This document shows positions 8,430 through 56,383 of a stretch of 64,000 nucleotides of DNA, piece after piece. The notes beneath the pieces are model-generated. The model did no database searches. It saw nothing but the letters and a program-made list of their open reading frames with translations, and had not been told where the DNA came from. This DNA is from Escherichia phage VEcB: sequence record NC_052663.1, one strand, 5' to 3'. Positions within the stretch are counted from its first letter, which is position 1. Each line of letters opens with the position of its first letter. Position numbers and translations under genes: made by a program.

Positions 8430-9167
8430 ATGGATGCTTTAAATTTTGTAACAGCAATCCGTGGATTAATCAACGAGCAAGTTGCGGAAGTACATACATC
8501 TTTACCTGTAAGGGTAATTGGTGTAGATTATGGATCTAAGACAGTAACTTTAGAATCTATTGTAAAAAACACCAGATCTACTGAAGATGAAATAGATTAC
8601 CCAACATTCCACGATGTTCCTTTTATGGTAAATGGTGGTGGTACAGGTAGAATTTCATTTCCAATTAAAGCAGGAGATATTGGTGTTGTTGTCTTTTCGG
8701 AAAGAGATCCGTCGAATGCTTTCCAGACAGATGGAGATACAGCCAGCAGCGGGACGTTAATTCAACCTTGTGGTTTATATCCAGCCTGTTTTATTCCTAA
8801 GATAGCAACAGCTACAGATTCTTCAGAAGAAGTAGATTCTGAAAAAGTTGTTATCTCAAATAATAAGCAAACTTACGCTTCGTTTGATCCTAACGGTAAT
8901 ATATCTGTGTACAACACACAAGGTATGAAAATAGATATGACACCAAACAGTATCGTTCTTACTGATGCAGGAGGAGGAAAACTTACACTGCAAGGTGGGA
9001 CTATGACATATAAAGGTGGCACTGTAAATTTAAACGGTTTAACAATCACACCTGACGGTCGTATGAAAGATAGTGGTGGCATTGGTTTACACACACATAC
9101 ACACCCTGTGCGCGGTGTTGAAACTGGTGGTAGCACTGTTACTTCCGACAAACCAAATGGAGGTTAA
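8430..9167 (+). CDS. putative baseplate central spike (gpV / Mu gp45-like)
   Basis: 245 aa; N-terminal OB-like segment, Gly-rich beta-strand repeats and a C-terminal HTHTHP His cluster typical of spike tips; position before the wedge gene. Confidence 0.55.
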   Translation: MDALNFVTAIRGLINEQVAEVHTSLPVRVIGVDYGSKTVTLESIVKNTRSTEDEIDYPTFHDVPFMVNGGGTGRISFPIKAGDIGVVVFSERDPSNAFQTDGDTASSGTLIQPCGLYPACFIPKIATATDSSEEVDSEKVVISNNKQTYASFDPNGNISVYNTQGMKIDMTPNSIVLTDAGGGKLTLQGGTMTYKGGTVNLNGLTITPDGRMKDSGGIGLHTHTHPVRGVETGGSTVTSDKPNGG

Positions 9168-10272: not shown

Positions 10273-13148
10273 TGTCAAGAATTAAGCACAGAATTGACAA
10301 TGTTTTTCAACTGATCGATGGACATATTCAGTTCTTAGATCGTAATACAGGTTTAACTGTAGATCCTACAGTGCAACACTATGTATTAAACCCACAAAAC
10401 GTTCTAGCTAATAACAGACACTTTATAAACTGGACTGCTCAAGAAGGGCAACCAAACGGGGATGCTACAACAGAAGGTCAATCCGTGCTTATTCTTGGTT
10501 GCGCTTATGCATATCTAGCTTCCGGCGATACAAAGTATTTAGACTCTGCTAAAAAATATTGGCAAGCCTATATAGATTACTTCTTTGGTGGTCAACCTAT
10601 CCCAGATCCGCCAGCAAAGTATCGCCCTAACTGGATTATTAACGGTAAAGAACCACGTCTTGCACACTATCCTCTTACAGATGATGGCTACCCTACACAC
10701 GGAGGTTTTAAGGGTAGCTTAATGACGTGGACTAACGGTAGAACAGTTATTCCTCATGGTGCTCCACATTGGGGAGAATACCTTGACAAAGCATGGTTTG
10801 CTTTTAATGGTAATCTAGGATGGAACTCTGTAAACGCTACAGTATATGCTGTTAATGCAGATGGAACAACAGATTGGTCTAAGAATGGAGATCAATGGGA
10901 CGTTGATTGGATCATTGATCGTCTAGGACGTAAAGTTGATTGGGATGGAAATATCTTAGAAGAAGGTTTTCCAACATCTCAATACGGAACAGTTCAACTA
11001 AAAAATACTTCTGTAAACGGTACATATAAATTTAACTACGCGACTTGTAACCCTGTTGAACACGGTGGTTATTTAATGGAGCGTAACACTATGTGGCATA
11101 ACAGACCAGTTAACGTTCCGGTAGAAATGGGCTTTCAGGATAATGCGTCAGATGCCGAAACTTGGTGGTGTGATGCTAATTACCTGATGTACCAAATTAC
11201 AGGAGAAAGAAAATATTGGCTATGCTGGCAGTCTTCACTGTTAGTGTGTCAAGATTACTCAAACATTGATATGTTTGATAAATTTTTCCGTAAGTCTACA
11301 TATGCAACTATTCCGTTTACAGATGGCATCTCTTACGATTATTCATATCCATCTACAGCAATACCTAAATATTCAAGAGATACTTTAGGCTATATTGTTA
11401 TTAGACAAGATGTTGCTGCTCAAACAACATTAGAACAGCAAGCCATTTGGTTTAAAGTTGATCAGAACTCTAAGTTACGAGTCCAGTTTCAAGGTGTAGA
11501 TGACGCAGGACATGGTATTCTTTTCCGTCCAGAGTTGGAATTAAGTAAGACCAAAGATGAAAATAACACAGTAACTTACCGCTGTGGCTTACCACTAGGT
11601 ACAGCTAATATGACAAGCATGGATATTCCACTATCCAGCTTTATGAGAAGTACCCCTCCTAGTGGTGGAACATATATTATCGCAGATCCGCGAATTATTG
11701 TTGACTGGGGTGACAATACTGTGGTACAATATAAGTATGTAACAGGTATTGCTGGAACTAATAATGACCAGATTGTTACTGCATCAATGGATACGGATGG
11801 TGGTGTTACTGTTGGTTTTTGGTTAACTCCTACATCAAAAGCTAATGTTAAGTCTATTACATATAGAACATATGAAGATGACTTTAACATGACTATCACG
11901 GATGCTCAAGGTTGGAGATGGTGGGCTATGCTGCCTAAAACGCAAGGGGCATGGAGTACGAAGACTTTATCAGCCTCTGCTTTTAAGTTAAGTGCTTACC
12001 AGCCTAATCATCCAGAAACAGATCCTAAACCTTCAGCAATAAATCTTACTGCTGTAGATCAGGTAAATTTAGTTCTTGATACGGCTCCTGTCAATGGTTT
12101 AACAGGAACAATAGATTTCTATTGTATTAACGATGTACCTGAAAGATATTCGTCATCTTCTGGTGATGATTATACCATGTACTTCCGTATTACTGTACAG
12201 GCTTCAAGTCCTCATACTGCTAAGTTAGGTGATTGTACTATTATTGACTATAAGTTAAATAGTCTTAATTACACACCAGGAATAATTCCATTCTCTAATA
12301 TCAGTGACCCAAACACTGCATTATACGATGGATGGCGTGGTATTCCATACCCAGGATACCAGTATCCTTCCTTATACTGTTTCGCAGGTAGGGATATTGA
12401 TTGGACACGTTTAAACAACAGTATTGATTTCTTGTATGATGCTCAAATGTGGTTTTATAACACGTTTGATCCTGTGATGCCTGGGCCTATGGCACAAGCA
12501 TATGTGTGGGATCGTTGGGATGCAAGAAAATACGGTGAACCTAATACGTTTACAATGAAACACTGGAATGAAAAAGCGTGGGATGGTTATGAAGCTCGTG
12601 CATTCTACTGTGCTTGTCATGCTGTATACGAACTTGTACAAAGAGGAGAAACACCTCCTGAAAAACTAGTAACTGTTTGTAAAAATTGGATCAACTACCT
12701 TAAATGGTTCCAAGACAATAATGATGGAAGAACACCAACTATCTTTAATCCAGATGGTACAGTTCTTGCACCTATAGATGACTTTACTAGTCATATGTCT
12801 GCACTGTTTATGGCGGGTTGTTCAATCATGGGCTTGGCAGGTTATGATTCACAAATTCCAAACATTGGTATTGTAGCAGACAGATGTTTTGATCTGATTC
12901 AGCAAAACTATATTGTGCTTTCCCCTAACCATCCGATGAATGGTTCCTGGAGTGTTGCACCACGCCCAGATTCAGATAACGGAATGTTCTTTGGTTTCCA
13001 TGCTGGAGAACTATTACGTGGTTTTGGTTTATATGCCTTGTATCGTAAACTAAACCCTCAAAACGCTTTACCAATTTTGGATAATAGTAACATACCAACA
13101 CTAACTGTTCTAACTATGAATGATATTAGTGTTGATGTAACCAAATAA
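10272..13148 (+). CDS. large virion (baseplate/fibre-associated) protein
   Basis: 958 aa ORF; start overlaps the upstream stop (ATGTC/TAATG-type coupling); Trp/Tyr-rich. Confidence 0.4.
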   Translation: MSRIKHRIDNVFQLIDGHIQFLDRNTGLTVDPTVQHYVLNPQNVLANNRHFINWTAQEGQPNGDATTEGQSVLILGCAYAYLASGDTKYLDSAKKYWQAYIDYFFGGQPIPDPPAKYRPNWIINGKEPRLAHYPLTDDGYPTHGGFKGSLMTWTNGRTVIPHGAPHWGEYLDKAWFAFNGNLGWNSVNATVYAVNADGTTDWSKNGDQWDVDWIIDRLGRKVDWDGNILEEGFPTSQYGTVQLKNTSVNGTYKFNYATCNPVEHGGYLMERNTMWHNRPVNVPVEMGFQDNASDAETWWCDANYLMYQITGERKYWLCWQSSLLVCQDYSNIDMFDKFFRKSTYATIPFTDGISYDYSYPSTAIPKYSRDTLGYIVIRQDVAAQTTLEQQAIWFKVDQNSKLRVQFQGVDDAGHGILFRPELELSKTKDENNTVTYRCGLPLGTANMTSMDIPLSSFMRSTPPSGGTYIIADPRIIVDWGDNTVVQYKYVTGIAGTNNDQIVTASMDTDGGVTVGFWLTPTSKANVKSITYRTYEDDFNMTITDAQGWRWWAMLPKTQGAWSTKTLSASAFKLSAYQPNHPETDPKPSAINLTAVDQVNLVLDTAPVNGLTGTIDFYCINDVPERYSSSSGDDYTMYFRITVQASSPHTAKLGDCTIIDYKLNSLNYTPGIIPFSNISDPNTALYDGWRGIPYPGYQYPSLYCFAGRDIDWTRLNNSIDFLYDAQMWFYNTFDPVMPGPMAQAYVWDRWDARKYGEPNTFTMKHWNEKAWDGYEARAFYCACHAVYELVQRGETPPEKLVTVCKNWINYLKWFQDNNDGRTPTIFNPDGTVLAPIDDFTSHMSALFMAGCSIMGLAGYDSQIPNIGIVADRCFDLIQQNYIVLSPNHPMNGSWSVAPRPDSDNGMFFGFHAGELLRGFGLYALYRKLNPQNALPILDNSNIPTLTVLTMNDISVDVTK

Positions 13149-41158: not shown

Positions 41159-41668
41159 TTAGCGATAGAATTGATGTTCTTTGTAGCGGTACACTAGAAC
41201 CATATCTTTTTCCCAGTGTGCTCTTATTGTAGATTTTTTAAAGTATAATGCTCCTTTTGTAATATCTAATGCAATTCGTAATTCTGGAAAATGCGTATCG
41301 AGATAAAGCAGACGTTCTGCTATAGCCTTAGCTTCCTTCCACTTATCACGTTCCATAACGTTGAATGTCTTTGTGTAAGAGAATTGTCCTTTTTGAAACA
41401 AAACTTCTTTTATAGTATCAGGGAAATATGAATCTCTAGCCCTATTTAATACTACATTACCAACAGCAGACATACCGCGCTTTCCTTGATTACGACTTTC
41501 TGCATAGATTGCACAAGCTAATAGATTTTCTTTACTATCACGCTTTGTACACTTGTGAACTACTTTAGCAGTTTTTACGTTTGCAGCTTCGGCTTGCGCC
41601 ACGACAGGTGTAAATGTAAAAGCAGTTAAGGATAGTAACGCAATTGCGACAAAGGTTTTTATTGACAA
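41159..41668 (-). CDS. secreted cell wall hydrolase, SleB-like (Hydrolase_2 family)
   Basis: 169 aa; TTG start 5 nt after AGGAGG; N-terminal signal peptide (AIALLSLTAFTFTPVVAQA); SleB-like core LLACAIYAESRNQGKRGMSAVGNVVLNRA...DTIKEVLFQKGQFS. Confidence 0.6.
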   Translation of the reverse strand: MSIKTFVAIALLSLTAFTFTPVVAQAEAANVKTAKVVHKCTKRDSKENLLACAIYAESRNQGKRGMSAVGNVVLNRARDSYFPDTIKEVLFQKGQFSYTKTFNVMERDKWKEAKAIAERLLYLDTHFPELRIALDITKGALYFKKSTIRAHWEKDMVLVYRYKEHQFYR

Positions 41669-42415: not shown

Positions 42416-43012
42416 TTACTCGAACCAATCGTCGCCAGCGCCAAACGCTTTAACTACATCATAAATGTCAAGTCCAGCTTTACCTACACCATATGCTTTC
42501 AGTTTCCATTCGCTATCTTCCCGTACCAGGGAGGCAACGTGGCAAATGGTATTACCTGCAAGTTCTGGAGCCAAGAAGTCAAAATCCAGCAGTTCAACGT
42601 TACGTTCATCATCGAAGATTTTAAGGAAACCTTCGGTAGCGTGACCAAGGCGTTTCTTACCCGTTTCGTCATCAATAGTGATTACGAATGCAATTTCCTG
42701 TGCTTCAGCAGAGATATTACCCAGTGTAACATCAATCTGCTCCATCTGTCCTACACCATCACGAACATCTTCACCTGCAAAAGTAGAACGTTCAGGATCA
42801 AATTTCTGTGCGTAGCATACCAGGTGGCGAGGAGACAACAGTTCCGGCAGACCAGATGCATTGTGTCGGCAAATCAGAGCACTAACATCCAGATCCAGTT
42901 TTTCGTTAGATTTCCAAGAGAATTCCAGACGAATGCGTTTCAGTGCTGGTGCAATCTTTTTCAGAGAAACTTTTTCGCTAGAACCTTTTTTCAGGGAAAT
43001 TTTCTGAGTCAT
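42416..43012 (-). CDS. terD: TerD-family protein
   Basis: 198 aa; N-terminal SLKKGSSEKVSLKK, DLDVSALIC, IAFVITIDD and C-terminal SEWKLKAYGVGKAGL closely parallel conserved TerD blocks; AAGGAG RBS. Confidence 0.8.
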   Translation of the reverse strand: MTQKISLKKGSSEKVSLKKIAPALKRIRLEFSWKSNEKLDLDVSALICRHNASGLPELLSPRHLVCYAQKFDPERSTFAGEDVRDGVGQMEQIDVTLGNISAEAQEIAFVITIDDETGKKRLGHATEGFLKIFDDERNVELLDFDFLAPELAGNTICHVASLVREDSEWKLKAYGVGKAGLDIYDVVKAFGAGDDWFE

Positions 43013-43084: not shown

Positions 43085-43879
43085 TTACGCTTTTGCTCCG
43101 AATTTTTTAACCCACTCGCCAAACTCTTCGGATAGCAGTTTATCGTAAAGTTCTTCGTCAGACAAGGACAAATCTGCAATACCGATAAAGTCAACGTTAT
43201 CGTATTCTTTTGCCAAGTCTTTCAGGAATTTAAAGTTTGCATTACCTACACCAACCATAAACCAGTAAACAGGAGTGTTGCGGTGTTTGTTCAGCAAACT
43301 ACGTACTGCTGAAGTATCCATGTTCTCCCCGTCAGTTTGGAAGAAAATCATTGCAGGAGTACGATCAACTTGTGCATCAGTATCTACAACCTGTTCTACA
43401 ACAGTACGTGTAACTTCTACAAGTTCTTTTTTACCAGTCAGTTTAGCAAGGAAACCCTTAGCCGGAACTTCTTCATACTCAACGACTTCGCGTGTAATAT
43501 TTTTCATAGGTACACTACCGAAGTATGTATCATAGATCTCTTGCATTACTGGAGCATAAGCTGTACCACCATTGATGCAAATGTTAGACATGCAAGAGCC
43601 GACATAATCATCATATACATCAGCCGTTGCAGGAGGCAGTTCAAAAGAAGAACTATTGAAAGCCCACATGTCAATCTGTGCATTATCATCAAACTTCATA
43701 CCAAACGGCAGCAGTTTACCTACAAAATCACTAACAGTGCCATCACGATATAGCTCACACATACTACCCGAAATATCTAAGGCGCTACCGACACGAAGAA
43801 CAACATCGTTAATCTTTTTCTTACGCAGAGATACAGTAAGAGTTTCTTGACGTTTTTTAAGACTGATTTTATTGGACAT
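43085..43879 (-). CDS. vWA-domain protein (TerF/TerY-like)
   Basis: 264 aa; TerD-like N-terminal SLKK..TLTVSLRKK start followed by vWA MIDAS motif DISGSM and downstream Thr/Asp metal-site residues. Confidence 0.55.
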   Translation of the reverse strand: MSNKISLKKRQETLTVSLRKKKINDVVLRVGSALDISGSMCELYRDGTVSDFVGKLLPFGMKFDDNAQIDMWAFNSSSFELPPATADVYDDYVGSCMSNICINGGTAYAPVMQEIYDTYFGSVPMKNITREVVEYEEVPAKGFLAKLTGKKELVEVTRTVVEQVVDTDAQVDRTPAMIFFQTDGENMDTSAVRSLLNKHRNTPVYWFMVGVGNANFKFLKDLAKEYDNVDFIGIADLSLSDEELYDKLLSEEFGEWVKKFGAKA

Positions 43880-44906: not shown

Positions 44907-45139
44907 TACACATTCTCCTCTTTTACCAATTCCATCGTTGAATTGTCAAAACCATCTTTAGAAGAATAGGTATAGACAGAACGTAGTTCTCGCAGGACAG
45001 TGAATACATTAGGATCATCTAACCAAGCATCCTGGAGGAGAACATAACGATCTTCATTGTCATACTGAACAGCAATCATAGAACCAGACAGTTTGTAAAT
45101 TTTAATATTCATAATATATTTCTCCTTAAAGTAGACCAC
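44906..45139 (-). CDS. hypothetical small protein
   Basis: 77 aa ORF. Confidence 0.3.
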   Translation of the reverse strand: MVYFKEKYIMNIKIYKLSGSMIAVQYDNEDRYVLLQDAWLDDPNVFTVLRELRSVYTYSSKDGFDNSTMELVKEENV

Positions 45140-46229
45140 GTTTAACAGTTTGAATCATACCATCTTCAAGAGATTGCACTTCTTGAATGTAATCAATACG
45201 AGCAGCACGGGCTTCAGTGTTGATTCGGTTAGTTTCTTCCAACATTTTAACTAAGTTTTCTTGATCGCGACGTAATGTTTCAATATCCAATACTTGACGA
45301 TTAGCAAGTTTTGTAGCTTCAATTTGGTTTTGTGCAGCCAGATCACTACCCATTGCAATAGCAGCATTAAATTCATTCAGTACATTGTTCTGTGTATCGG
45401 CTGCTTTCTTCTGGCGTAAACTTTCAATATACATAGAAAAGTTTGCAGAGTAAGCAGGAATAACATTATTCACAATATTACGGGCTGATCGCATCAAACT
45501 TGCAGATACTTTCTGCATACTTTGTACACGTGGCCCCATCTGAACACACAGTAAACGCAAGGCTTTCAGGTCTGCAATACGAATTTCAAGCAGATCCATA
45601 GTATCACGAGTACGTTGACGCTCTTCTACTTCATTTTCAGGTAGTGTATTAAGGCGAACTTCTTCTTTTTCATAAGTAGCTGTTAGAAGCTCTATATCCC
45701 TGTTTAAGCTAAGAGCATATTTTGCAATAGCCTCCTCTAAACGTTGCAGATATCGTAAAGAATCTTCTTCTTTTTTCAAATCTGTTTGGAGTGTCTTTAC
45801 CAAACCTTCAATACGGTTATTGATGGTGTCAAATTCTCCAAACAAATCTTCTTTCATACCTAAAACTTTCTTAACTAGTTTACCTAAACCTTTAGATTGT
45901 TTAATAGAGTTAGGATCAAGTTGCTTTGCTTGCTTAATAAGTGCAGTTAAACGTTCACTCATTTCATCTCCCTGAGATGAACGCTGGTGTTTAAGCACTT
46001 CAGCATTAAGGTTACGAAGAGTAAGTCCTGCATCAGCACCAACCTGTTCAATCTCTTCACGAGACATTGGAGGCAGCATTTGTACAGGGCGTGCAACAGC
46101 AGGGGCATATACAGGGCTTGCATCCATAGCACTTGGAGCAAACAAAGACTTACTTTTTTCTGTTGTTGCCGTGAATACACTCATTTCAGACGGTTTGCTT
46201 TTTACGGCACTGATAAAAGGACTGGACAT
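45126..46229 (-). CDS. telA: TelA-like (toxic anion resistance / KlaB family) protein
   Basis: 367 aa, largely alpha-helical coiled-coil protein of TelA size and composition; context with terD and terC; assignment by gestalt, not by a defined motif. Confidence 0.5.
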   Translation of the reverse strand: MSSPFISAVKSKPSEMSVFTATTEKSKSLFAPSAMDASPVYAPAVARPVQMLPPMSREEIEQVGADAGLTLRNLNAEVLKHQRSSQGDEMSERLTALIKQAKQLDPNSIKQSKGLGKLVKKVLGMKEDLFGEFDTINNRIEGLVKTLQTDLKKEEDSLRYLQRLEEAIAKYALSLNRDIELLTATYEKEEVRLNTLPENEVEERQRTRDTMDLLEIRIADLKALRLLCVQMGPRVQSMQKVSASLMRSARNIVNNVIPAYSANFSMYIESLRQKKAADTQNNVLNEFNAAIAMGSDLAAQNQIEATKLANRQVLDIETLRRDQENLVKMLEETNRINTEARAARIDYIQEVQSLEDGMIQTVKRGLL

Positions 46230-46297: not shown

Positions 46298-47149
46298 TTA
46301 AACAAACATATCTAAATAATTTGTAGTAATAAATGCTCCATCTGCTTCCAGATTAACATAACCCGTGGTATTAGCAGTTAAGAAATCTAGATCGAAGGAC
46401 TCTTTAACACCCCGTACCTCAACACGAGAGATATCGAATACAGGTAGTGTAACAGCCTCTTCGTGCAATACCGTACCTTTGTAGGTTGCCTTAATGATAA
46501 ACTTGATATTACCTGTTCCAGCATCATATAAAACACTTTCAAACCCTTTGAGAGTATATTTATCACCAGAAGTGAAGTGCAAAGTTGCTTTGTTTACAGT
46601 ACGTTTCTTACGAGGAGTTCCTTTCACACGTTTATGATCACTACGTTTTTTGTATTTAGGAATGAATACAAACGATACACTCTCAAGAAAGGTATCAACA
46701 TCAAGGATTTTAATATCCTCTGTTGCAGCAAATTTTGAAGTCGTTGCATCAAAATGCTTTTCCCTGCGATCATACATAAAGATATCAAACCGATCTTCTA
46801 AATCAAACAAATTATGTATTTTAATTTCAGAATGCTTGCGCATTGCAGCAACCTTGAACTCTTCAAAACGTGGGTGTTCTACAAGTTCTTCAAGTTTTAC
46901 ACCAAAGACAGTATATGGCTTCGAAGTCTTTTCTGGTGTTGGCATTACAGAAGCATAGTCCCCGATTGCGCTCTTAAAGCAAAATTGTTCTTGACCTGTA
47001 TTTTTACCAACGAATTTACAGTATTCATCATCGTGCATACTTTCCTTGGTAGTACCAACAAACTCAAAACCATCTTTATTCTTCTCAAGGATTTCTTGAT
47101 TAAAGATCCAACCTTCCAGGCGATATACTTTACCAACTTCTAGTTTCAT
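46298..47149 (-). CDS. hypothetical protein
   Basis: 283 aa ORF. Confidence 0.35.
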   Translation of the reverse strand: MKLEVGKVYRLEGWIFNQEILEKNKDGFEFVGTTKESMHDDEYCKFVGKNTGQEQFCFKSAIGDYASVMPTPEKTSKPYTVFGVKLEELVEHPRFEEFKVAAMRKHSEIKIHNLFDLEDRFDIFMYDRREKHFDATTSKFAATEDIKILDVDTFLESVSFVFIPKYKKRSDHKRVKGTPRKKRTVNKATLHFTSGDKYTLKGFESVLYDAGTGNIKFIIKATYKGTVLHEEAVTLPVFDISRVEVRGVKESFDLDFLTANTTGYVNLEADGAFITTNYLDMFV

Positions 47150-47184: not shown

Positions 47185-47775
47185 TTAACGACGACGTGAG
47201 CTACTAAAACTACGTTTCGACGAAGAATAACTTTTCGAAGACTTACTATAAGAACTAATAGGGCTTGAGTAAGACTTACGAGCAGAGTAATCACTATTCA
47301 CTTTTGTTGTTGACGGGCGTGAATACGTTTGTACACTTTGCTGCTTAATTGTGTTTTGTTTAGTGGTTGTATATGTATTTCCTTGTTTATCATAAAAACT
47401 ATGCTTTTGTGTTGTATATGCTTTACTGTTAGTTGTAGGAGCAGCGTTGTTATTAATAATTGTTGTGCTGCTACCACCATCTCTATAACCGCCACCGCCA
47501 CTATTACCACTCAACATATGACCAAGAAGCATACCTGTAGCAAACTCACCTACACCAGAAGAACCACTGCCGCCTCCTTGCACAACAACTGTTGAAGGTT
47601 GTGCAGGTGCTGCTTGAACAACTTGAGGTGCAGGCTGATTTACATATTGTTCATCTACCATCTGATTTGGTGTTTGTTGGTAACGTTGATTTTGTACATT
47701 TTCAGAATCATCACAACCTACCAGCAATGCACTACCTAATACAACTGCAACAATAAAAGATTTAATGTTTTTCAT
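47185..47775 (-). CDS. lipoprotein (Gly- and Ser-rich), probable inner-membrane retention signal
   Basis: Start set at ATG 47775 (MKNIKSF; GAGAGGG RBS); signal peptide with lipobox LLVGC, Asp-Asp at +2/+3; Gly-rich and Ser/Tyr-rich C-terminal low complexity. Confidence 0.5.
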   Translation of the reverse strand: MKNIKSFIVAVVLGSALLVGCDDSENVQNQRYQQTPNQMVDEQYVNQPAPQVVQAAPAQPSTVVVQGGGSGSSGVGEFATGMLLGHMLSGNSGGGGYRDGGSSTTIINNNAAPTTNSKAYTTQKHSFYDKQGNTYTTTKQNTIKQQSVQTYSRPSTTKVNSDYSARKSYSSPISSYSKSSKSYSSSKRSFSSSRRR

Positions 47776-47968
47776 TTGTAACCCTCTCATTTAAAGTCTC
47801 AACACAATTTTTAAAATCCCTAGAGAAACAATACATCTGTTCTCCGTTCCTGTTGATAGTAATTGTATGGTTATCAATATATGTTGTCAAGATAAAAATC
47901 AAACAAAACAACCCTAGAGCAAAACAAATATTTTCAAACAGAATCCAAAGAACACGTAAAACCACCAT
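47762..47968 (-). CDS. hypothetical small membrane protein
   Basis: 68 aa with one hydrophobic helix. Confidence 0.3.
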   Translation of the reverse strand: MVVLRVLWILFENICFALGLFCLIFILTTYIDNHTITINRNGEQMYCFSRDFKNCVETLNERVTNEKH

Positions 47969-48019: not shown

Positions 48020-48985
48020 CTAGTCTTCTTTTTCAGGGAAGATTAAACTTGCAATAACACCCAGCCCAAGAGTACCTAACACAATATACATACTGATCGT
48101 CGGATCAATGTGTGCTGGCAGGAAACTCACTTTTGCGTGCAGAGTTTCTGCAAACGGGTGATACATCAGTTTTACACCCACAAATACCAGGACTACGATA
48201 ACTGCTTTCTCCAGATGAACCAAATACTTCAGTGCAACACTAAGAACAAAGAACAGAGCACGTAAACCTAAGATTGCACAGAGCATCGAAGAGAACACCA
48301 GCAGAGGTTCTTGTGTCACCGCAATTACCGCTGGAACAGAGTCTACTGCAAAGATTACGTCAACCATTTCCATTACAAACACACAAACCAGAGCCGGAGT
48401 TGCTACACGAACACCATTTTTGATTGTGAAGAACTTCTCACCATCCATCTGATCAGATACAGGGAACAGCTTACGAACAATGCGAGTAGCCCAGTGTTTA
48501 GAGTAATCAACTTCTGCATCATTATCCCCAGCGAATACCATTTTAGCCGCACAGAAAAGGATGACAGCACCGAAGAAGATATTAACATACCAGCCCAAAC
48601 TCAACAAGTAAGTGCCTACTGCTACAAACACACCTCGGAAGACAATCGCACCTGCAATACCCCAAAGTAGAATTTTGTGCTGCAAGTGTGTGCTTTTAAT
48701 ACCAAAACTTGCGAAGACTGCCACAAATACTACTAAGTTATCTACAGAAAGAGATTTCTCCAACACATACCCACTCAAGAACAAGCTCGCAAAATCAGCA
48801 CCGTGTTGGAAGTATACAAAACCATAGTAGGCTAATGATACCCCAATCCAGAAAATTGACCAGCCAATTGCAGATTTAAATGAAATTTCTTTGTTTTCTC
48901 TGTGTCCAAAGAAGTCAATACAAATCGACAAGACTAAAATACCCACTAAAACAACCACATCAATAATTGGGAAACCCAGTTGCAT
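48020..48985 (-). CDS. terC: TerC-family integral membrane protein
   Basis: 321 aa polytopic membrane protein with the diagnostic EKSLSVDNLVVF motif; GAGGAG RBS. Confidence 0.8.
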   Translation of the reverse strand: MQLGFPIIDVVVLVGILVLSICIDFFGHRENKEISFKSAIGWSIFWIGVSLAYYGFVYFQHGADFASLFLSGYVLEKSLSVDNLVVFVAVFASFGIKSTHLQHKILLWGIAGAIVFRGVFVAVGTYLLSLGWYVNIFFGAVILFCAAKMVFAGDNDAEVDYSKHWATRIVRKLFPVSDQMDGEKFFTIKNGVRVATPALVCVFVMEMVDVIFAVDSVPAVIAVTQEPLLVFSSMLCAILGLRALFFVLSVALKYLVHLEKAVIVVLVFVGVKLMYHPFAETLHAKVSFLPAHIDPTISMYIVLGTLGLGVIASLIFPEKED

Positions 48986-49003: not shown

Positions 49004-49022
49004 GCGGAGGACAATCCTCCGC
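49004..49022 (-). other. GC-rich hairpin in the 5' leader of terC
   Basis: 8 bp stem GCGGAGGA/TCCTCCGC with 3 nt loop, located between the predicted -10 and the terC RBS. Confidence 0.35.
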
Positions 49023-49541: not shown

Positions 49542-50258
49542 TTATTTCAGTTTGTAAACAATTACATTTAAACCTTTGTTCACTAGAGTTTCTTCGATCA
49601 TAAGTTTTACAATATTCCAAGAACCTCCAGCCAAACCACAACCAAGCATTGGTAAACCTACAATTTTACCGCCTGAAGATACAACATCGTCTCCCATACT
49701 ATCTAACGCATTGTAGATAGCTTCATAATTCAGGTCACGCTTACCTTCCTCACGACGACTATAACCATATTGTCCATATAAATTATAAATTGTCAAATTG
49801 TTTTCTGCATACTTAGTAAACGTACCTAATTTTTTATAATCACCACGTTTAGTGGCACAATCTGCTTTAAACGCACCAGGCCACTTGCTTTTAATTTTTG
49901 GTGCAATACCACTACCCATAGTGCAAAAACAGTTACAGCAGTGTGCTATAGCGTCTATATCGCCTCTCTCGGCTGCTGCTAAAAGATCACCGTACACCTC
50001 AATGATACCTGCTGGATAACTTGTTACAATTTCATCTTCCCAGTACATTTTCTCTACACCACCGATCAGTGCAAAGTTTTGTGTAATACGATCATCAATG
50101 TAATTAAGACCTGAGACATACACAGCGTATTCATCACGTGCTGTGATACCTTGTACACGAATTCTTAAGACACCATCTTTATCTGTTGCTACACGCCCAA
50201 AATCTTTTTCTGTAATATTGGTGATAGGATCTCCGAAAGTCATTACTTTATTAGACAT
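49542..50258 (-). CDS. macro-domain protein (ADP-ribose binding / processing)
   Basis: Start set at ATG 50258 (AAGGGGA RBS; 8 nt overlap with the PRTase stop); motifs AIAHCCNCFCTMGSGIA and IVGLPMLGCGLAGGSWNIV resemble the N-x6-G-G-G and G-x-G blocks of macro domains. Confidence 0.5.
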   Translation of the reverse strand: MSNKVMTFGDPITNITEKDFGRVATDKDGVLRIRVQGITARDEYAVYVSGLNYIDDRITQNFALIGGVEKMYWEDEIVTSYPAGIIEVYGDLLAAAERGDIDAIAHCCNCFCTMGSGIAPKIKSKWPGAFKADCATKRGDYKKLGTFTKYAENNLTIYNLYGQYGYSRREEGKRDLNYEAIYNALDSMGDDVVSSGGKIVGLPMLGCGLAGGSWNIVKLMIEETLVNKGLNVIVYKLK

Positions 50259-51108
50259 AATAATCCCCTTTAACATTAGGTTTGTTGATAATGTTGCTTT
50301 CAAAAAATTGACGTAGGAAATCAAAGTTCTCTTTGTATTTTTCAATGTTATTGTAACCTTCTGCAAGGCAACCAAAGAACAGTTGTTCTACATAATACAA
50401 AGGAAGTTGTGAAAGTGCAATTTTAAAGTCAACTTCGCTTTGACTCATTAGATACTTAATAGGACGAACCAAACATTTAGCATCAGCTTCTTGCTTAATC
50501 ATTTTAATAAAAGCTGCCAGATTATTGATATAGTTGAAGTTAAGTGCAGCTTCGGTGTTGGCTTCTGTACCTTCATACTTTGCAAAGTACAGGAAAAACG
50601 TATTGTTTTCAACACCTTCTTTGTCTAAAATTTCAATAAGTTTTTCTTCGTGTGTACCTGTAATATTAACATCATCAATGAAAATCAGATTTTTATCGCC
50701 CCAAAAATCACGATTGATAGAGAAAGTATCACCATCGATCAAAGCCTTACGATCTTCTTTGCTAAGAAATCCATAATCATTGATATAGCTTACTTTACGA
50801 TGAACGATATCCCACTCTACTGCTTTACCTCCTTTGATAGAGATTAGGTAGTTGAGGTGATCTACAAAATGTTCAGATAACACTGTAGCTGCATTTTTAA
50901 CATAGTTATACGGAGATGGAATAACAACAGAACTTTCATTTACCAGTCGTTCTTCATATTTAGAAAAGAAACTTTCAGCCAGAATGCGTCCCATTCTTTT
51001 TGCTGCCTGGTTACTACCAAACTTTAGTTTGGAATAATCTGCAATGTTAAATTTTGCTTCCTTCAGGTTAGTAAAAGTATTAGCAAAATGTTGAATTTGA
51101 TTACGCAT
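50251..51108 (-). CDS. phosphoribosyltransferase (type I PRTase fold)
   Basis: 285 aa; PRPP-binding motif NLIFIDDVNITGTHEEKL; start overlaps the HAD gene stop. Confidence 0.6.
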   Translation of the reverse strand: MRNQIQHFANTFTNLKEAKFNIADYSKLKFGSNQAAKRMGRILAESFFSKYEERLVNESSVVIPSPYNYVKNAATVLSEHFVDHLNYLISIKGGKAVEWDIVHRKVSYINDYGFLSKEDRKALIDGDTFSINRDFWGDKNLIFIDDVNITGTHEEKLIEILDKEGVENNTFFLYFAKYEGTEANTEAALNFNYINNLAAFIKMIKQEADAKCLVRPIKYLMSQSEVDFKIALSQLPLYYVEQLFFGCLAEGYNNIEKYKENFDFLRQFFESNIINKPNVKGDYYV

Positions 51109-51775
51109 TAATAAGTTCCTCTTTTTTAAGTTTAGCCAACAAGTCTTCTGGATTAATAATATGACAGAACTTCATCCCTATGTCAACAGCTTTTCCATCA
51201 TAAATCAAACTATCTCCAACGTGTAAAATCTCCTCTGGTGCGAGATCAAACGTCACCATTTCATCAAAAGAGAGTTTAAAAAACCTAGGATCTGGTTTAC
51301 ACAAGCAAAACTCGTCAGAAAAATGCATAAAGTCGAATGGTAATTTTGTTAAGCCAGAATATACAGCTAAGAAACTACCTGGTACAAAATTAGTATTGCT
51401 CTTAATACTCAAAGAGTAGGTTGAACTTAACTCTTCCAACTTCTTGCAAAGTTCAGGATTCAATGTTGGAGGATGTTTTATAAACATTGCTAAACAGTCT
51501 CTTTTTAACCCATCCACTTTATCAAGATCAATGTTCAAACGAGTAGAAAGTGTTACCCAAGCATCCTTAGACGTTCCACAAATGCCTTTTTCTGCTTTTA
51601 AATCCAAGAGAGTTTTTACCTCTTTATATACGGTAGCTGCTTCTACCTCAGAACAAGAGGCATACTCGGCAATAACCTTGTTGCGCTCTTCTGCATACAA
51701 AGGGTTAGCAGTAATAAGAGTATTCCATACATCAAAAGAAATATGCTTAACAGTCATTTTTAATCCTCCGTCCAA
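51101..51775 (-). CDS. HAD-superfamily hydrolase (phosphatase-like)
   Basis: 224 aa; motif I ISFDVWNTL near the N-terminus and motif IV HVGDSLIYDGKA near the C-terminus. Confidence 0.55.
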   Translation of the reverse strand: MDGGLKMTVKHISFDVWNTLITANPLYAEERNKVIAEYASCSEVEAATVYKEVKTLLDLKAEKGICGTSKDAWVTLSTRLNIDLDKVDGLKRDCLAMFIKHPPTLNPELCKKLEELSSTYSLSIKSNTNFVPGSFLAVYSGLTKLPFDFMHFSDEFCLCKPDPRFFKLSFDEMVTFDLAPEEILHVGDSLIYDGKAVDIGMKFCHIINPEDLLAKLKKEELINA

Positions 51776-55525: not shown

Positions 55526-56383
55526 ACCCATGCTTGTGACGCGACCATCTGAAGATCCTGTAACTTCTTTGTTTAAAGGTACAGAGATAAAATCAGGATA
55601 AATGCGTTCAGCACAACACTCCATTGCCAGTTGCTTCAAATCATAATTTGGATCGCCAGCTTTCATGTTAACACCATCTTCCAAGAAGAAGATAACTTTA
55701 GGAAACACAGGAGTTACCCTATCTTTTCCTAATCCTTGTTTGTGCACCATTAGGTAGTTTTTAGTGATCATTCTACCAAAAGCAGAGGTATCCAAACCTA
55801 AACTAATTGTTATAAAAGGTGACTGACCATTTACACTCATTAGGGTGTTCACCTGGTAGATTAAAGTTTGCATTGCATCATAGACCTGTTTATCTACCAT
55901 ACGCATAGCAATATCATAATCGCCAACATCGGCATATATTTTATTAAAACTTGCTTTAACGTATTGACTAAGCCCAGTATCAACATGTGCACAAGTTTGT
56001 CCACCATATTGGCTAGAAGCTACTGCTTGAATAATTTGAGTTAGGACAGTAGTTGCTACACCAATAGATTTTGGTTTTTCAATATGTGCATTACCAATAC
56101 GGAAACCGTTCTCAAGCATATCTTGGTAATTTACCAGGCAACAATTAGTTAAAGGTGAGAGTAAATAATCTAAATCGTGGATGTGACCATACCCACTTTT
56201 ATGCCATTCTGCTAAATCTTCAGGCAAAATATGGGTCATTGCCATGTGCTTGCTTAGGATACCTGCTAGTAAATCTCGGTGAGTATTAACAATCATTGCA
56301 GGTTTGTTTGCATTTTCACGAGTAAATTCTTCGGATGTTTGTTCGAGGAATCCGATTACATCCTCATATAGTTTTTGGGTCAT
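55526..56383 (-). CDS. nrdD: anaerobic ribonucleoside-triphosphate reductase, exon 1 (N-terminal part)
   Basis: Start set at ATG 56383 (GGAGGA RBS); conserved NrdD blocks HIHDLDY, LTNCCLV, PKSIGVAT, SQYGGQT, NGQSPF, DPNYDLKQLAMEC; the ORF runs on 2 codons into the intron before a stop. Confidence 0.65.

Follow-up and report, generated by a model that had tools for sequence, protein, structure and literature searches.

To our knowledge, the phage lipoproteins known to remodel the envelope of an infected cell form a small, well-studied set (Llp, Cor, Bor and Rz1), and all of them are outer-membrane proteins. Llp of T5 and Cor of phi80, N15 and T1-like phages are small, folded lipoproteins of the outer membrane that bind FhuA and block this receptor. 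Ltp of Streptococcus phage TP-J34 is lipid-anchored at the outer face of the cytoplasmic membrane. Among bacterial proteins, the glycine-zipper lipoproteins carry a 'GH' pair in the sequence IGHQ-GGG, and bacterial ter operons are not known to encode a lipoprotein. The window (the whole stretch of 64,000 nucleotides of Escherichia phage VEcB, record NC_052663.1, that was analyzed) encodes a lipoprotein whose family has a different design: predicted retention in the inner membrane (in the enterobacterial phages), full predicted disorder, a charge dipole and a basic C-terminus. The coordinates of its gene, its segments and its immediate surroundings are collected in the table.

Table. Features of the lipoprotein gene and its upstream region in the window
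Feature	Positions	Strand	Basis
Lipoprotein gene, Phi92_gp180 homologue	47185..47775	-	ORF list; 196 codons, stop 47187-47185
Signal peptide, residues 1-20, ending L-V-G before Cys21	47716..47775	-	hydropathy and lipobox rule
Cys21 (putative lipidation site) and Asp22-Asp23 (predicted Lol-avoidance signal)	47707..47715	-	conservation and published rule
Acidic/neutral Gln/Pro/Val-rich spacer, residues 24-66 (QYVNQ, PQVVQ, VVVQ)	47578..47706	-	composition and conservation
Gly-rich core, glycine-zipper-like, residues 67-96 (GVGEFATGMLLGHMLSG)	47488..47577	-	invariant G/S positions; family signature
TTIINNN strand-like motif, residues 104-110	47446..47466	-	conservation; distant members have TVVNKT repeats as its counterpart
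Polycationic Ser/Thr/Tyr/Lys/Arg low-complexity tail, residues 111-196, ending SSSRRR	47188..47445	-	composition
Ribosome-binding site GAGAGGG	47782..47788	-	sequence read; 6 nt 5' of the lipoprotein ATG
Candidate sigma70-like promoter, TTGACA-17 nt-TACAAT	47862..47890	-	within the gp181 gene; 115 nt before the lipoprotein ATG
gp181 homologue, 68 aa	47762..47968	-	ORF list; stop overlaps the lipoprotein start by 14 nt

Judged from its conservation, the open reading frame is a real gene, belongs to a phage of the phi92-like group, and encodes a lipoprotein precursor. Phi92_gp180 and Paula_0138 have 99% sequence identity to the product, phrog_21570 matches it at 3.3e-122 in a search of PHROGs, and the isolate records of family members all annotate a 'hypothetical protein'. 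A longer reading of 201 aa would start at position 47790, but the ATG at 47775 is the one preceded at a spacing of 6 nt by GAGAGGG, no such site precedes the ATG at 47790, and the start codon in the phi92 and Paula records is identical to the ATG at 47775. The GAG within the ribosome-binding site is invariant in the eight relatives compared. Codon differences from four close relatives are 27 synonymous and 5 nonsynonymous, in comparisons that are not independent of one another, and this pattern indicates that the gene is under purifying selection.

The initial annotation described the product as a lipoprotein with an Asp-Asp Lol-avoidance signal after the lipobox Cys, continuing into a Gly-rich part and a Ser/Tyr-rich low-complexity tail, and each of these elements held up on closer analysis. 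This anatomy, with the localization predicted from it, is likely correct. The N-terminus (MKNIKSFIVAVVLGSALLVGC) has lysines at positions 2 and 5 in its n-region and an h-region with KD hydropathy of 2.4-2.7, and its L-V-G-C lipobox, with Cys21, conforms to a PROSITE-PS51257-style rule; the phi92 record carries a SignalP annotation on the lipoprotein gene. Scanned in six frames for lipoboxes, the whole 64 kb contained no match in any other annotated gene or long open reading frame, the remaining matches being short shadow open reading frames. Among the homologues used to count conservation (29-30 sequences of 43-97% identity; 30 for the positions given here), Cys21 never varies and D22 and D23 reach at least 90% conservation, with positions 24-30 variable. 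The context Cys-Asp-Asp-Ser-Glu fits the Lol-avoidance pattern, in which Asp at +2 precedes an acidic residue or Gln and basic residues are absent next to it. The strongest enterobacterial Lol-avoidance signal is the pair of Asp at +2 and Asp at +3 (PMC6469965), the rule for Asp after Cys is also given by PMC5727369, and Asp at +2 is not absolute as a sorting rule (PMC6469965). In the sister genus Phapecoctavirus, the phAPEC8-type homologue has Cys-Glu-Asp instead of Cys-Asp-Asp, and Asp at +2 is present in 35 of the 132 lipobox-bearing distant members of the family, roughly three quarters being without it; thus, inner-membrane retention may not be essential to the function of the family.

The mature lipoprotein, of 175 residues, is rich in Ser (32), Gln (17), Thr (17), Gly (16), Asn (12) and Tyr (11), and its charge is distributed unevenly: residues 22-70 have a pI of 4.05 with five acidic residues versus one basic, and residues 111-196 have a pI of 10.4 with 16 Lys plus Arg versus two Asp plus Glu. 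In the spacer, Q43, V63, V65 and Q66 are invariant in the 30 homologues, as are G74, G76, G81, G85 and S89 in the Gly-rich core (residues 67-96, GGGSGSSGVGEFATGMLLGHMLSGNSGGGG) and N108 in the strand-like motif, of which T104, T105, I106, I107 and N109 are at least 90% conserved. The core contains just one G81-x3-G85 unit. A true transmembrane helix in the core was judged unlikely on hydropathy, as the family median of KD19 is 0.62, which is too low for a normal transmembrane helix, with an oligomer left as a possible case. The C-terminal 86 residues are hydrophilic and basic and contain no hydrophobic window. AlphaFold2, run with the 30-sequence alignment, returned a pLDDT of 45 with no residue above 70, and the mature chain is predicted to be intrinsically disordered with a charge dipole.

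Profile searches found 210 clusters at E <=1e-3 and 21 at E <=1e-10, and cross-matches link phrog_21570, phrog_32479 and phrog_13808 as PHROGs that span the family. The family signature consists of a lipobox, an acidic or neutral Gln/Pro spacer, a GxGDFxTGMxLGHMxSGG core, TVVN strands and a polycationic Ser-rich tail whose last two or three residues are basic, typically as a C-terminal RRR, all of which the VEcB lipoprotein has. Of 145 distant members, a lipobox is present in 132, and at least two of the last three residues are basic in 128. Beyond the core, toward the C-terminus, the net charge has a median of +10 across the family, and 97% of 122 members show the charge dipole. Neither Pfam nor NCBIfam was found to have a model that covers the family; searches of Pfam, NCBIfam, PADLOC and PDB with the protein, its homologues and distant members gave signal-peptide or compositional matches only, and the PHROGs matched by the lipoprotein are of unassigned function, with no named family among them. 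A literature search on the lipoprotein, on glycine-zipper exclusion lipoproteins and on Justusliebigvirus lipoproteins found nothing specific. Family members were found almost exclusively on phage-like DNA, namely viral contigs and ORFan-rich phage-like contigs. Genome scans with the pattern GMx[LM]GHM[ML]S found at least two loci in bacterial genomes and at least 18 in metagenomes; the pattern was taken from a narrower alignment and is biased to phi92-like members, so these counts are lower bounds. One of the two bacterial loci is a 420-nt fragment, and the other (L014), the only one long enough to judge, has the phi92-like gene order. A tblastn search with a distant member against cultured phages gave no match, probably owing to the low-complexity filter, and blastn with the locus of the distant member matched Rz and endolysin genes and nothing else. 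On these comparisons, the family is apparently a broad, unnamed and phage-specific family of predicted lipoproteins.

The location of the gene between TelA-like and TerC genes, inside a Ter-like block, was confirmed by Pfam matches to TelA (45126-46229; PF05816, 2.6e-34) and TerC (48020-48985; PF03741, 1.1e-38). The direct flanks are gp179 (46298-47149) and gp181 (47762-47968), and the latter adjoins the lipoprotein gene in all Stephanstirmvirinae-like loci. The product of gp181 has a hydrophobic N-terminal segment that was read as a single transmembrane helix, two cysteines conserved among closer homologues (by alignment with the L006 homologue) and a weak match to DUF6693 (2.9e-4) that is below the Pfam cut-off. 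Pfam found no Ter domain in the lipoprotein, while its neighbors strongly match TelA, TerC, TerD and vWA-TerF.

The promoter candidate within gp181 matches 11 of 12 consensus positions, and matches of this quality occur three times in 16 kb versus 0.43 expected from shuffled sequences. The motif recurs at about -112 to -118 in eight diverged relatives, with TTGAC and TA...T as invariant columns although the gp181 residues encoded there differ. The lipoprotein gene is probably transcribed by the host sigma70 RNA polymerase from this candidate promoter, the conservation of which supports early or host-polymerase expression. In the phAPEC8 record, a 'host dependent promoter' is annotated ahead of TerC; from this annotation and the conserved motif, early expression of the lipoprotein is plausible. 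Besides having its own candidate promoter, the lipoprotein gene is probably translationally linked to gp181, and by either route it would be made early.

The function that is tentatively favored for the lipoprotein is a role at the level of the envelope, on the periplasmic face of the inner membrane, most likely exclusion of superinfecting phages and in the second place control of lysis. By established rules, the precursor would be exported by Sec and lipidated at Cys21 by Lgt, LspA and Lnt; in E. coli, Asp22-Asp23 would prevent extraction by LolCDE, so that the protein would remain on the periplasmic side of the inner membrane, in its outer leaflet. The acidic Gln/Pro spacer would lie beside the anchor, followed by the short glycine-zipper-like segment, which could drive self-association or shallow membrane insertion, and by the polycationic tail. 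Self-associating anchored chains might, speculatively, form a cationic brush on the periplasmic face of the inner membrane, which would bind anionic envelope material or incoming DNA and protect the infected cell, most likely by hindering entry of the genome of a secondary phage at the inner membrane. The lipoprotein may act jointly with gp181, and would resemble T4 Imm and Sp or Ltp functionally, unlike the receptor mask Llp. A role against superinfecting phages has been proposed for phage Ter blocks (PMC7824862). A more far-reaching possibility, which is distinctly improbable as a whole, is that the lipoprotein represents a new class of envelope effector, a disordered tethered polycation that would self-assemble through its zipper and Ser-Tyr-Ser sequences into a periplasmic brush or gel, with RRR as the binding or recognition element, and would capture nucleic acid or anionic envelope polymers such that superinfecting DNA is trapped or reported to the lysis clock. 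Periplasmic DNA has been proposed as a signal in T4 lysis inhibition.

Some genomic settings of the family point to lysis rather than exclusion. In one lineage of phage or prophage contigs of ~30-47 kb, a holin, a SAR endolysin and Rz with embedded Rz1 are followed by the lipoprotein gene, 19-50 nt downstream on the same strand, and this position in the late lysis cassette, as close as 19 nt to Rz/Rz1, argues for lysis together with an architectural look-alike in the unrelated podovirus GAP52, which is encoded two genes after a SleB-type endolysin. In a distant relative (L004) the lipoprotein gene is 2 kb downstream of the endolysin, and in the window a SleB-type endolysin with a predicted cleavable signal peptide is encoded 5.5 kb downstream in the same direction of transcription. 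It is therefore possible, though doubtful, that the lipoprotein is an accessory of lysis control that acts on the lysis machinery in the periplasm, where it might restrain the Sec-exported SleB-type endolysin, tune the timing of holin and antiholin, or sense superinfection like T4 RI. However, the phi92-like gene, with its sigma70-like promoter, is located among early and middle metabolic genes, away from the annotated holin and spanin genes; T7-like and L025-type members are not adjacent to lysis genes; and the region after the lysis cassette commonly hosts unrelated accessory genes, of which lambda bor is an example. It is less likely that the lipoprotein is a dedicated membrane subunit of the Ter-like stress module and, jointly with gp181, cooperates physically with TerC and TelA, for instance as their anchor or regulator at the inner membrane. 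All Stephanstirmvirinae-like loci retain the order TerC, variable genes, gp181, lipoprotein, variable genes, TelA despite insertion of a DNA methylase, an HNH gene and a SprT-like gene, and the GAP52 look-alike is encoded 2.6 kb after TerC/TerD, but this synteny comes mostly from a single phage lineage and thus counts roughly as one observation. The L004 gene has moved away from TelA, the Ter-carrying phages Privateer and Bambus have no family member near TerC, and no lipoprotein is named in the description of the Ter system in PMC7824862. The dependence on Ter genes that the location had seemed to imply does not extend to the family: many members have no Ter gene within 5-8 kb, and those without nearby Ter genes occupy at least six different genomic settings, among them the position after holin-endolysin-Rz/Rz1, T7-like replication regions and a position beside a tailspike gene. 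Because members occur without Ter genes, the lipoprotein gene looks like an autonomous accessory gene, which may have settled in the Ter/endolysin neighborhood of phi92-like phages and would not encode a core Ter subunit. Accessory genes that move around phage genomes are not exclusion genes alone.

Two further readings concern receptor masking and spanin function. Masking of a receptor, as by T5 Llp or Cor, had been suggested in the initial annotation and is now very unlikely. A phage lipoprotein that is probably made early would suit a block of an outer-membrane receptor, 175 disordered residues would in principle be long enough to span the periplasm, and the distant members that lack Asp at +2 are consistent with sorting to the outer membrane. 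Nonetheless, Asp22-Asp23 is conserved in the clade of E. coli phages and predicts inner-membrane retention; no folded domain is predicted, in keeping with the low pLDDT; and no named phage lipoprotein family was matched in Pfam, PHROGs, NCBIfam or PDB. The phi92-like phages use several surface receptors via a multivalent tail apparatus, so masking one receptor would help them little. The other reading, in which the lipoprotein is an o-spanin with gp181 as its i-spanin, or else a unimolecular spanin, is effectively refuted. It draws on the resemblance of a small gene with an N-terminal transmembrane segment, overlapping the start of the lipoprotein gene, to an 'overlapped' two-component spanin, on the Pro/Gln-rich, unstructured chain, which is like that of o-spanins, and on weak matches of six of the 30 homologues to an Rz1-like LysC model (best E 0.021). 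In phi92, an overlapped i-spanin/o-spanin pair has been curated at another locus (phi92 coordinates 55669-56336; PMC6139136 supplement), which implies that the lipoprotein is not the spanin, and the holin-endolysin lineage carries a classical embedded Rz1 besides its family member. Moreover, gp181 has only 68 aa and no coiled-coil periplasmic domain, Asp at +2 would bar the lipoprotein from the outer membrane, and the C-terminal transmembrane domain of a unimolecular spanin of the T1 gp11 type is absent.

A family member was found in every sampled phage of the subfamily that comprises the phi92-like and phAPEC8-like phages, which are under development for therapy, and further members occur in phages of other hosts, both T7-like and temperate. 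If the lipoprotein controls superinfection or the timing of lysis, it would affect the design of phage cocktails, and a disordered periplasmic effector, if true, would be a new mechanism in phage-host envelope biology. If it is a minor accessory protein, the gains are the definition of the family and corrected annotation, with respect to lipoprotein status, the start codons of phAPEC8-type homologues and the candidate internal promoter.

Compared with the systems described above, the VEcB lipoprotein is like Llp and Cor in being a phage-encoded lipoprotein, made during infection, that would act on the envelope of the infected cell, but unlike them it is predicted to be retained in the inner membrane by Asp at +2 and +3, is predicted to be disordered and matches no named family. 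Lambda Rz1-type o-spanins are likewise Pro-rich, unstructured phage lipoproteins, and one lineage has the family gene directly after Rz/Rz1, but Rz1 needs the outer membrane and a coiled-coil i-spanin, and Asp at +2 of the VEcB lipoprotein predicts the opposite sorting. Among bacterial proteins, OsmB, SlyB/Pcp and the entericidins also have a lipobox and, after it, a segment of the G-x-x-x-G type that includes a 'GH' pair (here LGHMLSGNSGGGG); these glycine-zipper lipoproteins are without a Gln/Pro spacer, TVVNKT strands or a cationic tail ending in RRR, and the VEcB lipoprotein has one short zipper. Glycine-zipper Pfam models were absent among the listed matches even at E up to 10, and a distant member matched PRK11280 of NCBIfam at E 0.0063, which is far below the cut-off. 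YgiB/YjfM (DUF1190) and DUF2076 proteins are likewise lipoproteins or secreted proteins in which a stretch rich in Ala, Gln and Pro precedes one rich in Met and Gly (for YgiB, SFWMPLMAGYMMGRLMGGG), and weak matches far below the Pfam cut-offs were obtained for 21 of the 30 homologues to DUF2076 (best E 0.0066) and for three of the 30 to DUF1190 (PF06693; E 0.38). This likeness may reflect composition alone; DUF1190 was not matched by distant members whose core is GYMLGR. Identity with the YgiB-like family was rejected, as hhalign with YgiB covered only 17 columns of signal peptide at a probability of 9%. The proposed site and mode of action, a block of genome entry at the outer face of the cytoplasmic membrane, are those of T4 Imm and Sp and of Ltp of TP-J34. 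No relation of sequence or fold to Imm, Sp or Ltp was found; Imm is integral to the membrane and Ltp contains folded domains of helical repeats, whereas the VEcB lipoprotein is a low-complexity chain whose tail is polycationic.

The lipoprotein open reading frame, on the minus strand, has two possible starts (47790 and 47775) and ends at 47185; a GAGAGGG ribosome-binding site lies six bases 5' of the ATG at 47775, the start used in deposited annotations, and the ATG at 47790 has none. The 196-residue product, with N-terminus MKNIKSFIVAVVLGSALLVGC followed directly by DDSEN, satisfies the PROSITE-type lipobox rule (Cys21, hydrophobic core KD 2.4-2.7, K2/K5), and when all six frames of the window were scanned for lipoboxes, no second candidate appeared in any annotated gene or long open reading frame. 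In the mature chain Ser accounts for 18% of residues, Gln and Thr for 10% each, Gly for 9% and Tyr for 6%; residues 22-70 form an acidic stretch (pI 4.05), residues 67-96 read GGGSGSSGVGEFATGMLLGHMLSGNSGGGG, and residues 111-196 are strongly basic (pI 10.4, 16 K+R versus 2 D+E), ending in SSSRRR. The direct neighbours are gp179 and the small, hydrophobic gp181, and the final 14 nt of the gp181 gene overlap the start of the lipoprotein gene. Thus the observation in the initial annotation, of a lipobox followed by Asp-Asp (Cys21-Asp22-Asp23), a Gly-rich part and a Ser/Tyr-rich tail, encoded between TelA and TerC (both confirmed by Pfam), was correct throughout.

Features of the window and of related loci
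Feature	Sequence	Coordinates	Strand	Remarks
SleB-type (Hydrolase_2) endolysin	window	41159-41668	-	phi92 gp170 homologue
TerD	window	42416-43012		Pfam-confirmed
vWA-TerF	window	43085-43879		Pfam-confirmed
TelA	window	45126-46229		Pfam-confirmed
gp181	window	47762-47968	-	68 aa
Promoter within gp181	window	47890..47862	-	TTGACA-17 nt-TACAAT
TerC	window	48020-48985		Pfam-confirmed
G+C-rich hairpin	window	49004-49022		GCGGAGGACAATCCTCCGC
Sigma70-like promoter	window	49062..49035	gene strand	TTGACT-16-TATAGT
Macro domain	window	49542-50261	-	Pfam-confirmed
Putative phosphoribosyltransferase	window	50251-51108	-	name from phi92 record
Hydrolase	window	51101-51775	-	name from phi92 record
gp054 as annotated	phAPEC8 (L042)	8477-8989		170 aa
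gp054 counterpart	Mt1B1_P17	8552-8989
gp025	GAP52 (L045)	11448-11996		182 aa, hypothetical
Follower protein, setting (iii)	L020	1903-2397
Follower protein, setting (iii)	L018	8358-8768
Follower protein, setting (iii)	L023	8362-8784
Follower protein, setting (iii)	L033	5532-5741

The 5 kb around the gene are 98-99% identical to arall, Paula, alia and phi92 (genus Justusliebigvirus, subfamily Stephanstirmvirinae), in which the homologues Phi92_gp180 and Paula_0138 are annotated as 'hypothetical protein'; the phi92 record gives a SignalP-predicted signal peptide for Phi92_gp180. No literature on the gene was found, and every record calls it 'hypothetical'. A search of 5.8 billion proteins yielded 29 homologues, in whose alignment Cys21 is invariant, conservation of Asp22 and of Asp23 is 90% or higher, the next seven positions are variable, and the conserved blocks are QYVNQ, PQVVQ, VIVQ, SGVGDFATGMILGHMMSGG, TTIINNN, SYSSP and the terminal SSSRRR. 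Codon differences from four close relatives number 27 synonymous and 5 non-synonymous (comparisons that are not independent), and the G+C content of the gene (0.384) matches that of the genome (0.379), so that the gene is no recent foreign insert. The strong Lol-avoidance (inner-membrane retention) signal of E. coli is Asp+2, usually followed by Asp, Glu or Gln (PMC6469965; PMC5727369), a rule that is not absolute (PMC6469965); the window lipoprotein and its 29 homologues fit it, with the caveat that the phAPEC8-type homologue has Cys-Glu-Asp. The sequence thus establishes a conserved predicted lipoprotein precursor that carries the enterobacterial signal for retention in the inner membrane, followed by a disordered, dipolar chain whose basic C-terminus is invariant.

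Beyond the signal peptide the lipoprotein matches nothing in Pfam, NCBIfam or PDB, and its PHROGs assignment is phrog_21570, a function-unknown group. When 1.84 billion cluster representatives were searched with a profile built on residues 1-112, 210 proteins scored E <=1e-3 and 21 scored E <=1e-10, mostly of 110-200 aa and matching the whole profile; ten of the shorter distant members likewise match no Pfam or NCBIfam family. In a set of 145 distant members, a lipobox is present in 132, two or more of the last three residues are basic in 128 (RRR, RRK, GRR, KRR) and 105 match a loose core pattern, G-x-(F/L)-x-T-G-M-x-L-G-H-M-x-S-G-G; Asp+2 occurs in only 35 of the 132 lipobox-bearing members, a further caveat to the predicted sorting. 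For the 122 members having both landmarks (lipid Cys and core), net charge between Cys and core has a median of -3 and never exceeds zero, net charge C-terminal to the core has a median of +10, and 97% combine an N-side of zero or less with a C-side of at least +3. The hydropathy of the core (19-residue KD, median 0.62, maximum 1.36) is below that of an ordinary transmembrane helix, and AlphaFold2 with the family alignment predicted no fold (mean pLDDT 45, no residue above 70). Taken together, charge, hydropathy and modelling describe a predicted charge dipole, disordered and anchored by lipid, that contains a single short glycine-zipper-like segment. The core, SGVGNLATGMMLGHMMSN, also occurs in two larger distant relatives, P0156 (352 aa) and P0138 (268 aa), and is therefore not restricted to the usual architecture: one larger relative has an N-terminal TPR region, a transmembrane segment and an acidic Ser/Asp/Trp-rich tail, and another has a C-terminal transmembrane segment.

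The promoter scan placed a sigma70-like promoter in the gp181 coding sequence, 115 nt 5' of the lipoprotein ATG; matches of at least 11/12 number three in this 16-kb strand versus 0.43 expected. Eight relatives, in which gp181 is only 36-62% identical, have the same motif approximately 112-118 nt upstream of the lipoprotein ATG. Invariant columns of the DNA alignment are TTGAC and, within the -10 element, TA...T, although the amino acids encoded at the -10 element differ (NHTI versus GGNI). Together with a 'putative host dependent promoter' annotated just before TerC in the phAPEC8 record, the conserved motif indirectly supports transcription by unmodified host polymerase and hence the early expression that had been proposed; the promoter would give the lipoprotein gene its own gp181-independent transcript. 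The hairpin between gp183 and TerC is a terminator in the phage Paula annotation, where it is assigned to the strand that does not encode the genes; another sigma70-like promoter lies just upstream of it. The gp181 gene is directly upstream of the lipoprotein gene in all Stephanstirmvirinae-like phages; its product has a hydrophobic N-terminal segment read as a transmembrane helix, two Cys common to its closer homologues (MYCF...C) and a weak, sub-threshold match to DUF6693, and may be a periplasmic disulfide-bonded partner of the lipoprotein.

Directly upstream of TerC is the macro-domain gene, followed by the phosphoribosyltransferase and hydrolase genes. The latter two match the 'nucleoside-like signal' biosynthetic part described for Ter systems (PMC7824862), so that the phage carries a reasonably complete Ter-like system. 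The SleB-type endolysin, encoded where the Ter block ends downstream, has an N-terminus, MSIKTFVAIALLSLTAFTFTPVVAQAEA, that resembles a cleavable Sec signal peptide, and no holin or spanin gene adjoins it; a Sec-exported endolysin would need some restraint before lysis.

Among cultured phages, tblastn found the lipoprotein in 53 Justusliebigvirus records only, with a low-complexity filter that hides diverged copies; a local HMM added phAPEC8 (gp054), Mt1B1_P17 and Citrobacter phage Tr1, in each of which the gene lies a short way downstream of TerC. In phAPEC8, gp054 is annotated from a start that adds an N-terminal extension, and the lipoprotein frame begins further on, at MKKLALILIGCIFLTAC, the start used in the Mt1B1_P17 annotation; phAPEC8 has no annotation for the small gp181-like gene upstream. 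Four 'Campylobacter phage' records (MG065645, MG065656, MG065689, MG065650; host C. jejuni) closely match E. coli Stephanstirmvirinae, three having the lipoprotein at 98% identity and one (B15) a phAPEC8-type TerC, and their host labels look doubtful. Cronobacter phage GAP52, an unrelated podovirus, encodes a protein (gp025) with a marginal HMM score (E 0.013, high bias) and an architecture identical in plan: LLGC-DD, Gln-rich, Pro/Val-rich and Gly/Ser-rich parts, GSHVATAALGAAAGYAAG at the position of the glycine-zipper-like segment, and a basic tail ending in KKRK. Its gene follows a SleB-type endolysin at a distance of two genes and TerC/TerD at a distance of 2.6 kb; the resemblance reflects either very distant homology or convergence. 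In the TerC phages of other families, Privateer and Brevundimonas Bambus, no member was found within 8-10 kb of TerC. When 185,579 species of bacteria and archaea, each represented by one genome, were scanned with a pattern, two loci emerged, a lower bound given the biased pattern: an 18.6-kb MAG contig (L014) with phi92-like gene order and a fragment of 420 nt (L013).

Viral and metagenomic scans, together with exact-protein-sequence look-ups, revealed many phage contigs with family members, in seven settings: (i) phi92-like contigs of about 145-155 kb, with the order TerC, variable genes, gp181, lipoprotein, variable genes including a gp179-like gene, TelA, vWA, TerD, endolysin; (ii) the distant 153-kb phage L004, where the gene has no gp181 partner and the endolysin is 2 kb upstream of it; (iii) one lineage, with contigs of 17-47 kb and 50-60% G+C and the order DNA methylase, holin, SAR endolysin, Rz with embedded classical Rz1, and the lipoprotein 19-50 nt later; (iv) T7-like replication regions, where helicase and ligase flank the gene or DNA polymerase adjoins it; (v) the last position of an early operon, preceded by an HTH protein and convergent with a tailspike-like gene (L025); (vi) adjoining a phage COOH-NH2 ligase (L041, L062, L063); and (vii) ORFan-rich contigs. 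Setting (iii), unlike the early expression supported above, would put the gene on one transcript with late lysis genes. The conserved protein that always follows it there is of low complexity, with an Arg-rich N-terminus (MFRWLRERRKRR...) and a His/Ser/Asp/Gly-rich tail (...DSSSSSDGGGGW) ending in Trp; it has no PHROG match, and its charge pattern is opposite to that of the lipoprotein tail. The lipoprotein gene travels alone from one phage genome to another, does not need Ter genes beside it and is all but confined to phages; its product is therefore regarded as a putative autonomous accessory envelope factor.

In the proposed mechanism, the lipoprotein would be made early in infection and sit in the periplasm at the inner membrane, where its chains may self-associate via the zipper segment and its basic tail may bind anionic partners. 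Exclusion of secondary infection at the inner membrane is ranked first, tentatively, and fits a published proposal that Ter blocks help phages to compete with superinfecting ones (PMC7824862). Control of lysis by the lipoprotein is nearly as good a candidate, since independent lineages repeatedly place the gene near those for endolysins and spanins. A role as dedicated subunit of the Ter module is possible at longer odds, but the basis for it is mostly synteny within one lineage. The lipoprotein is not itself a Ter-domain protein, as it has no Ter domain. The masking of a receptor, which the initial annotation offered beside exclusion, was not borne out and is quite unlikely: a mask of the Llp/Cor type is countered by the predicted inner-membrane location, the absence of a predicted fold and the lack of a match to any named family. 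Least credible is a spanin, since Kongari et al. curated an overlapped i-/o-spanin pair of phi92 at 55669-56336 (PMC6139136 supplement), far from gp180 at about 112.2-112.8 kb; gp181 has no coiled-coil domain, the lipoprotein tail has no transmembrane segment, and classical Rz1 genes are present alongside family members. The remaining probability falls to roles outside these readings. E. coli YgiB, a DUF1190 protein, has a similar SFWMPLMAGYMMGRLMGGG segment, and a relation to it failed on profile comparison and on Pfam scans; a PADLOC search for a known defence protein returned nothing.

The lipoprotein has a clear anatomy and belongs to a large family; its likely roles are of conventional kinds, and claims about biological function are speculative. 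A phage envelope lipoprotein is a known kind of element, of which this family and its design are undescribed. T4 Imm/Sp and the lipoprotein Ltp of TP-J34 exclude secondary infection at the cytoplasmic membrane, and it is these systems that the window lipoprotein would resemble in its proposed exclusion role.
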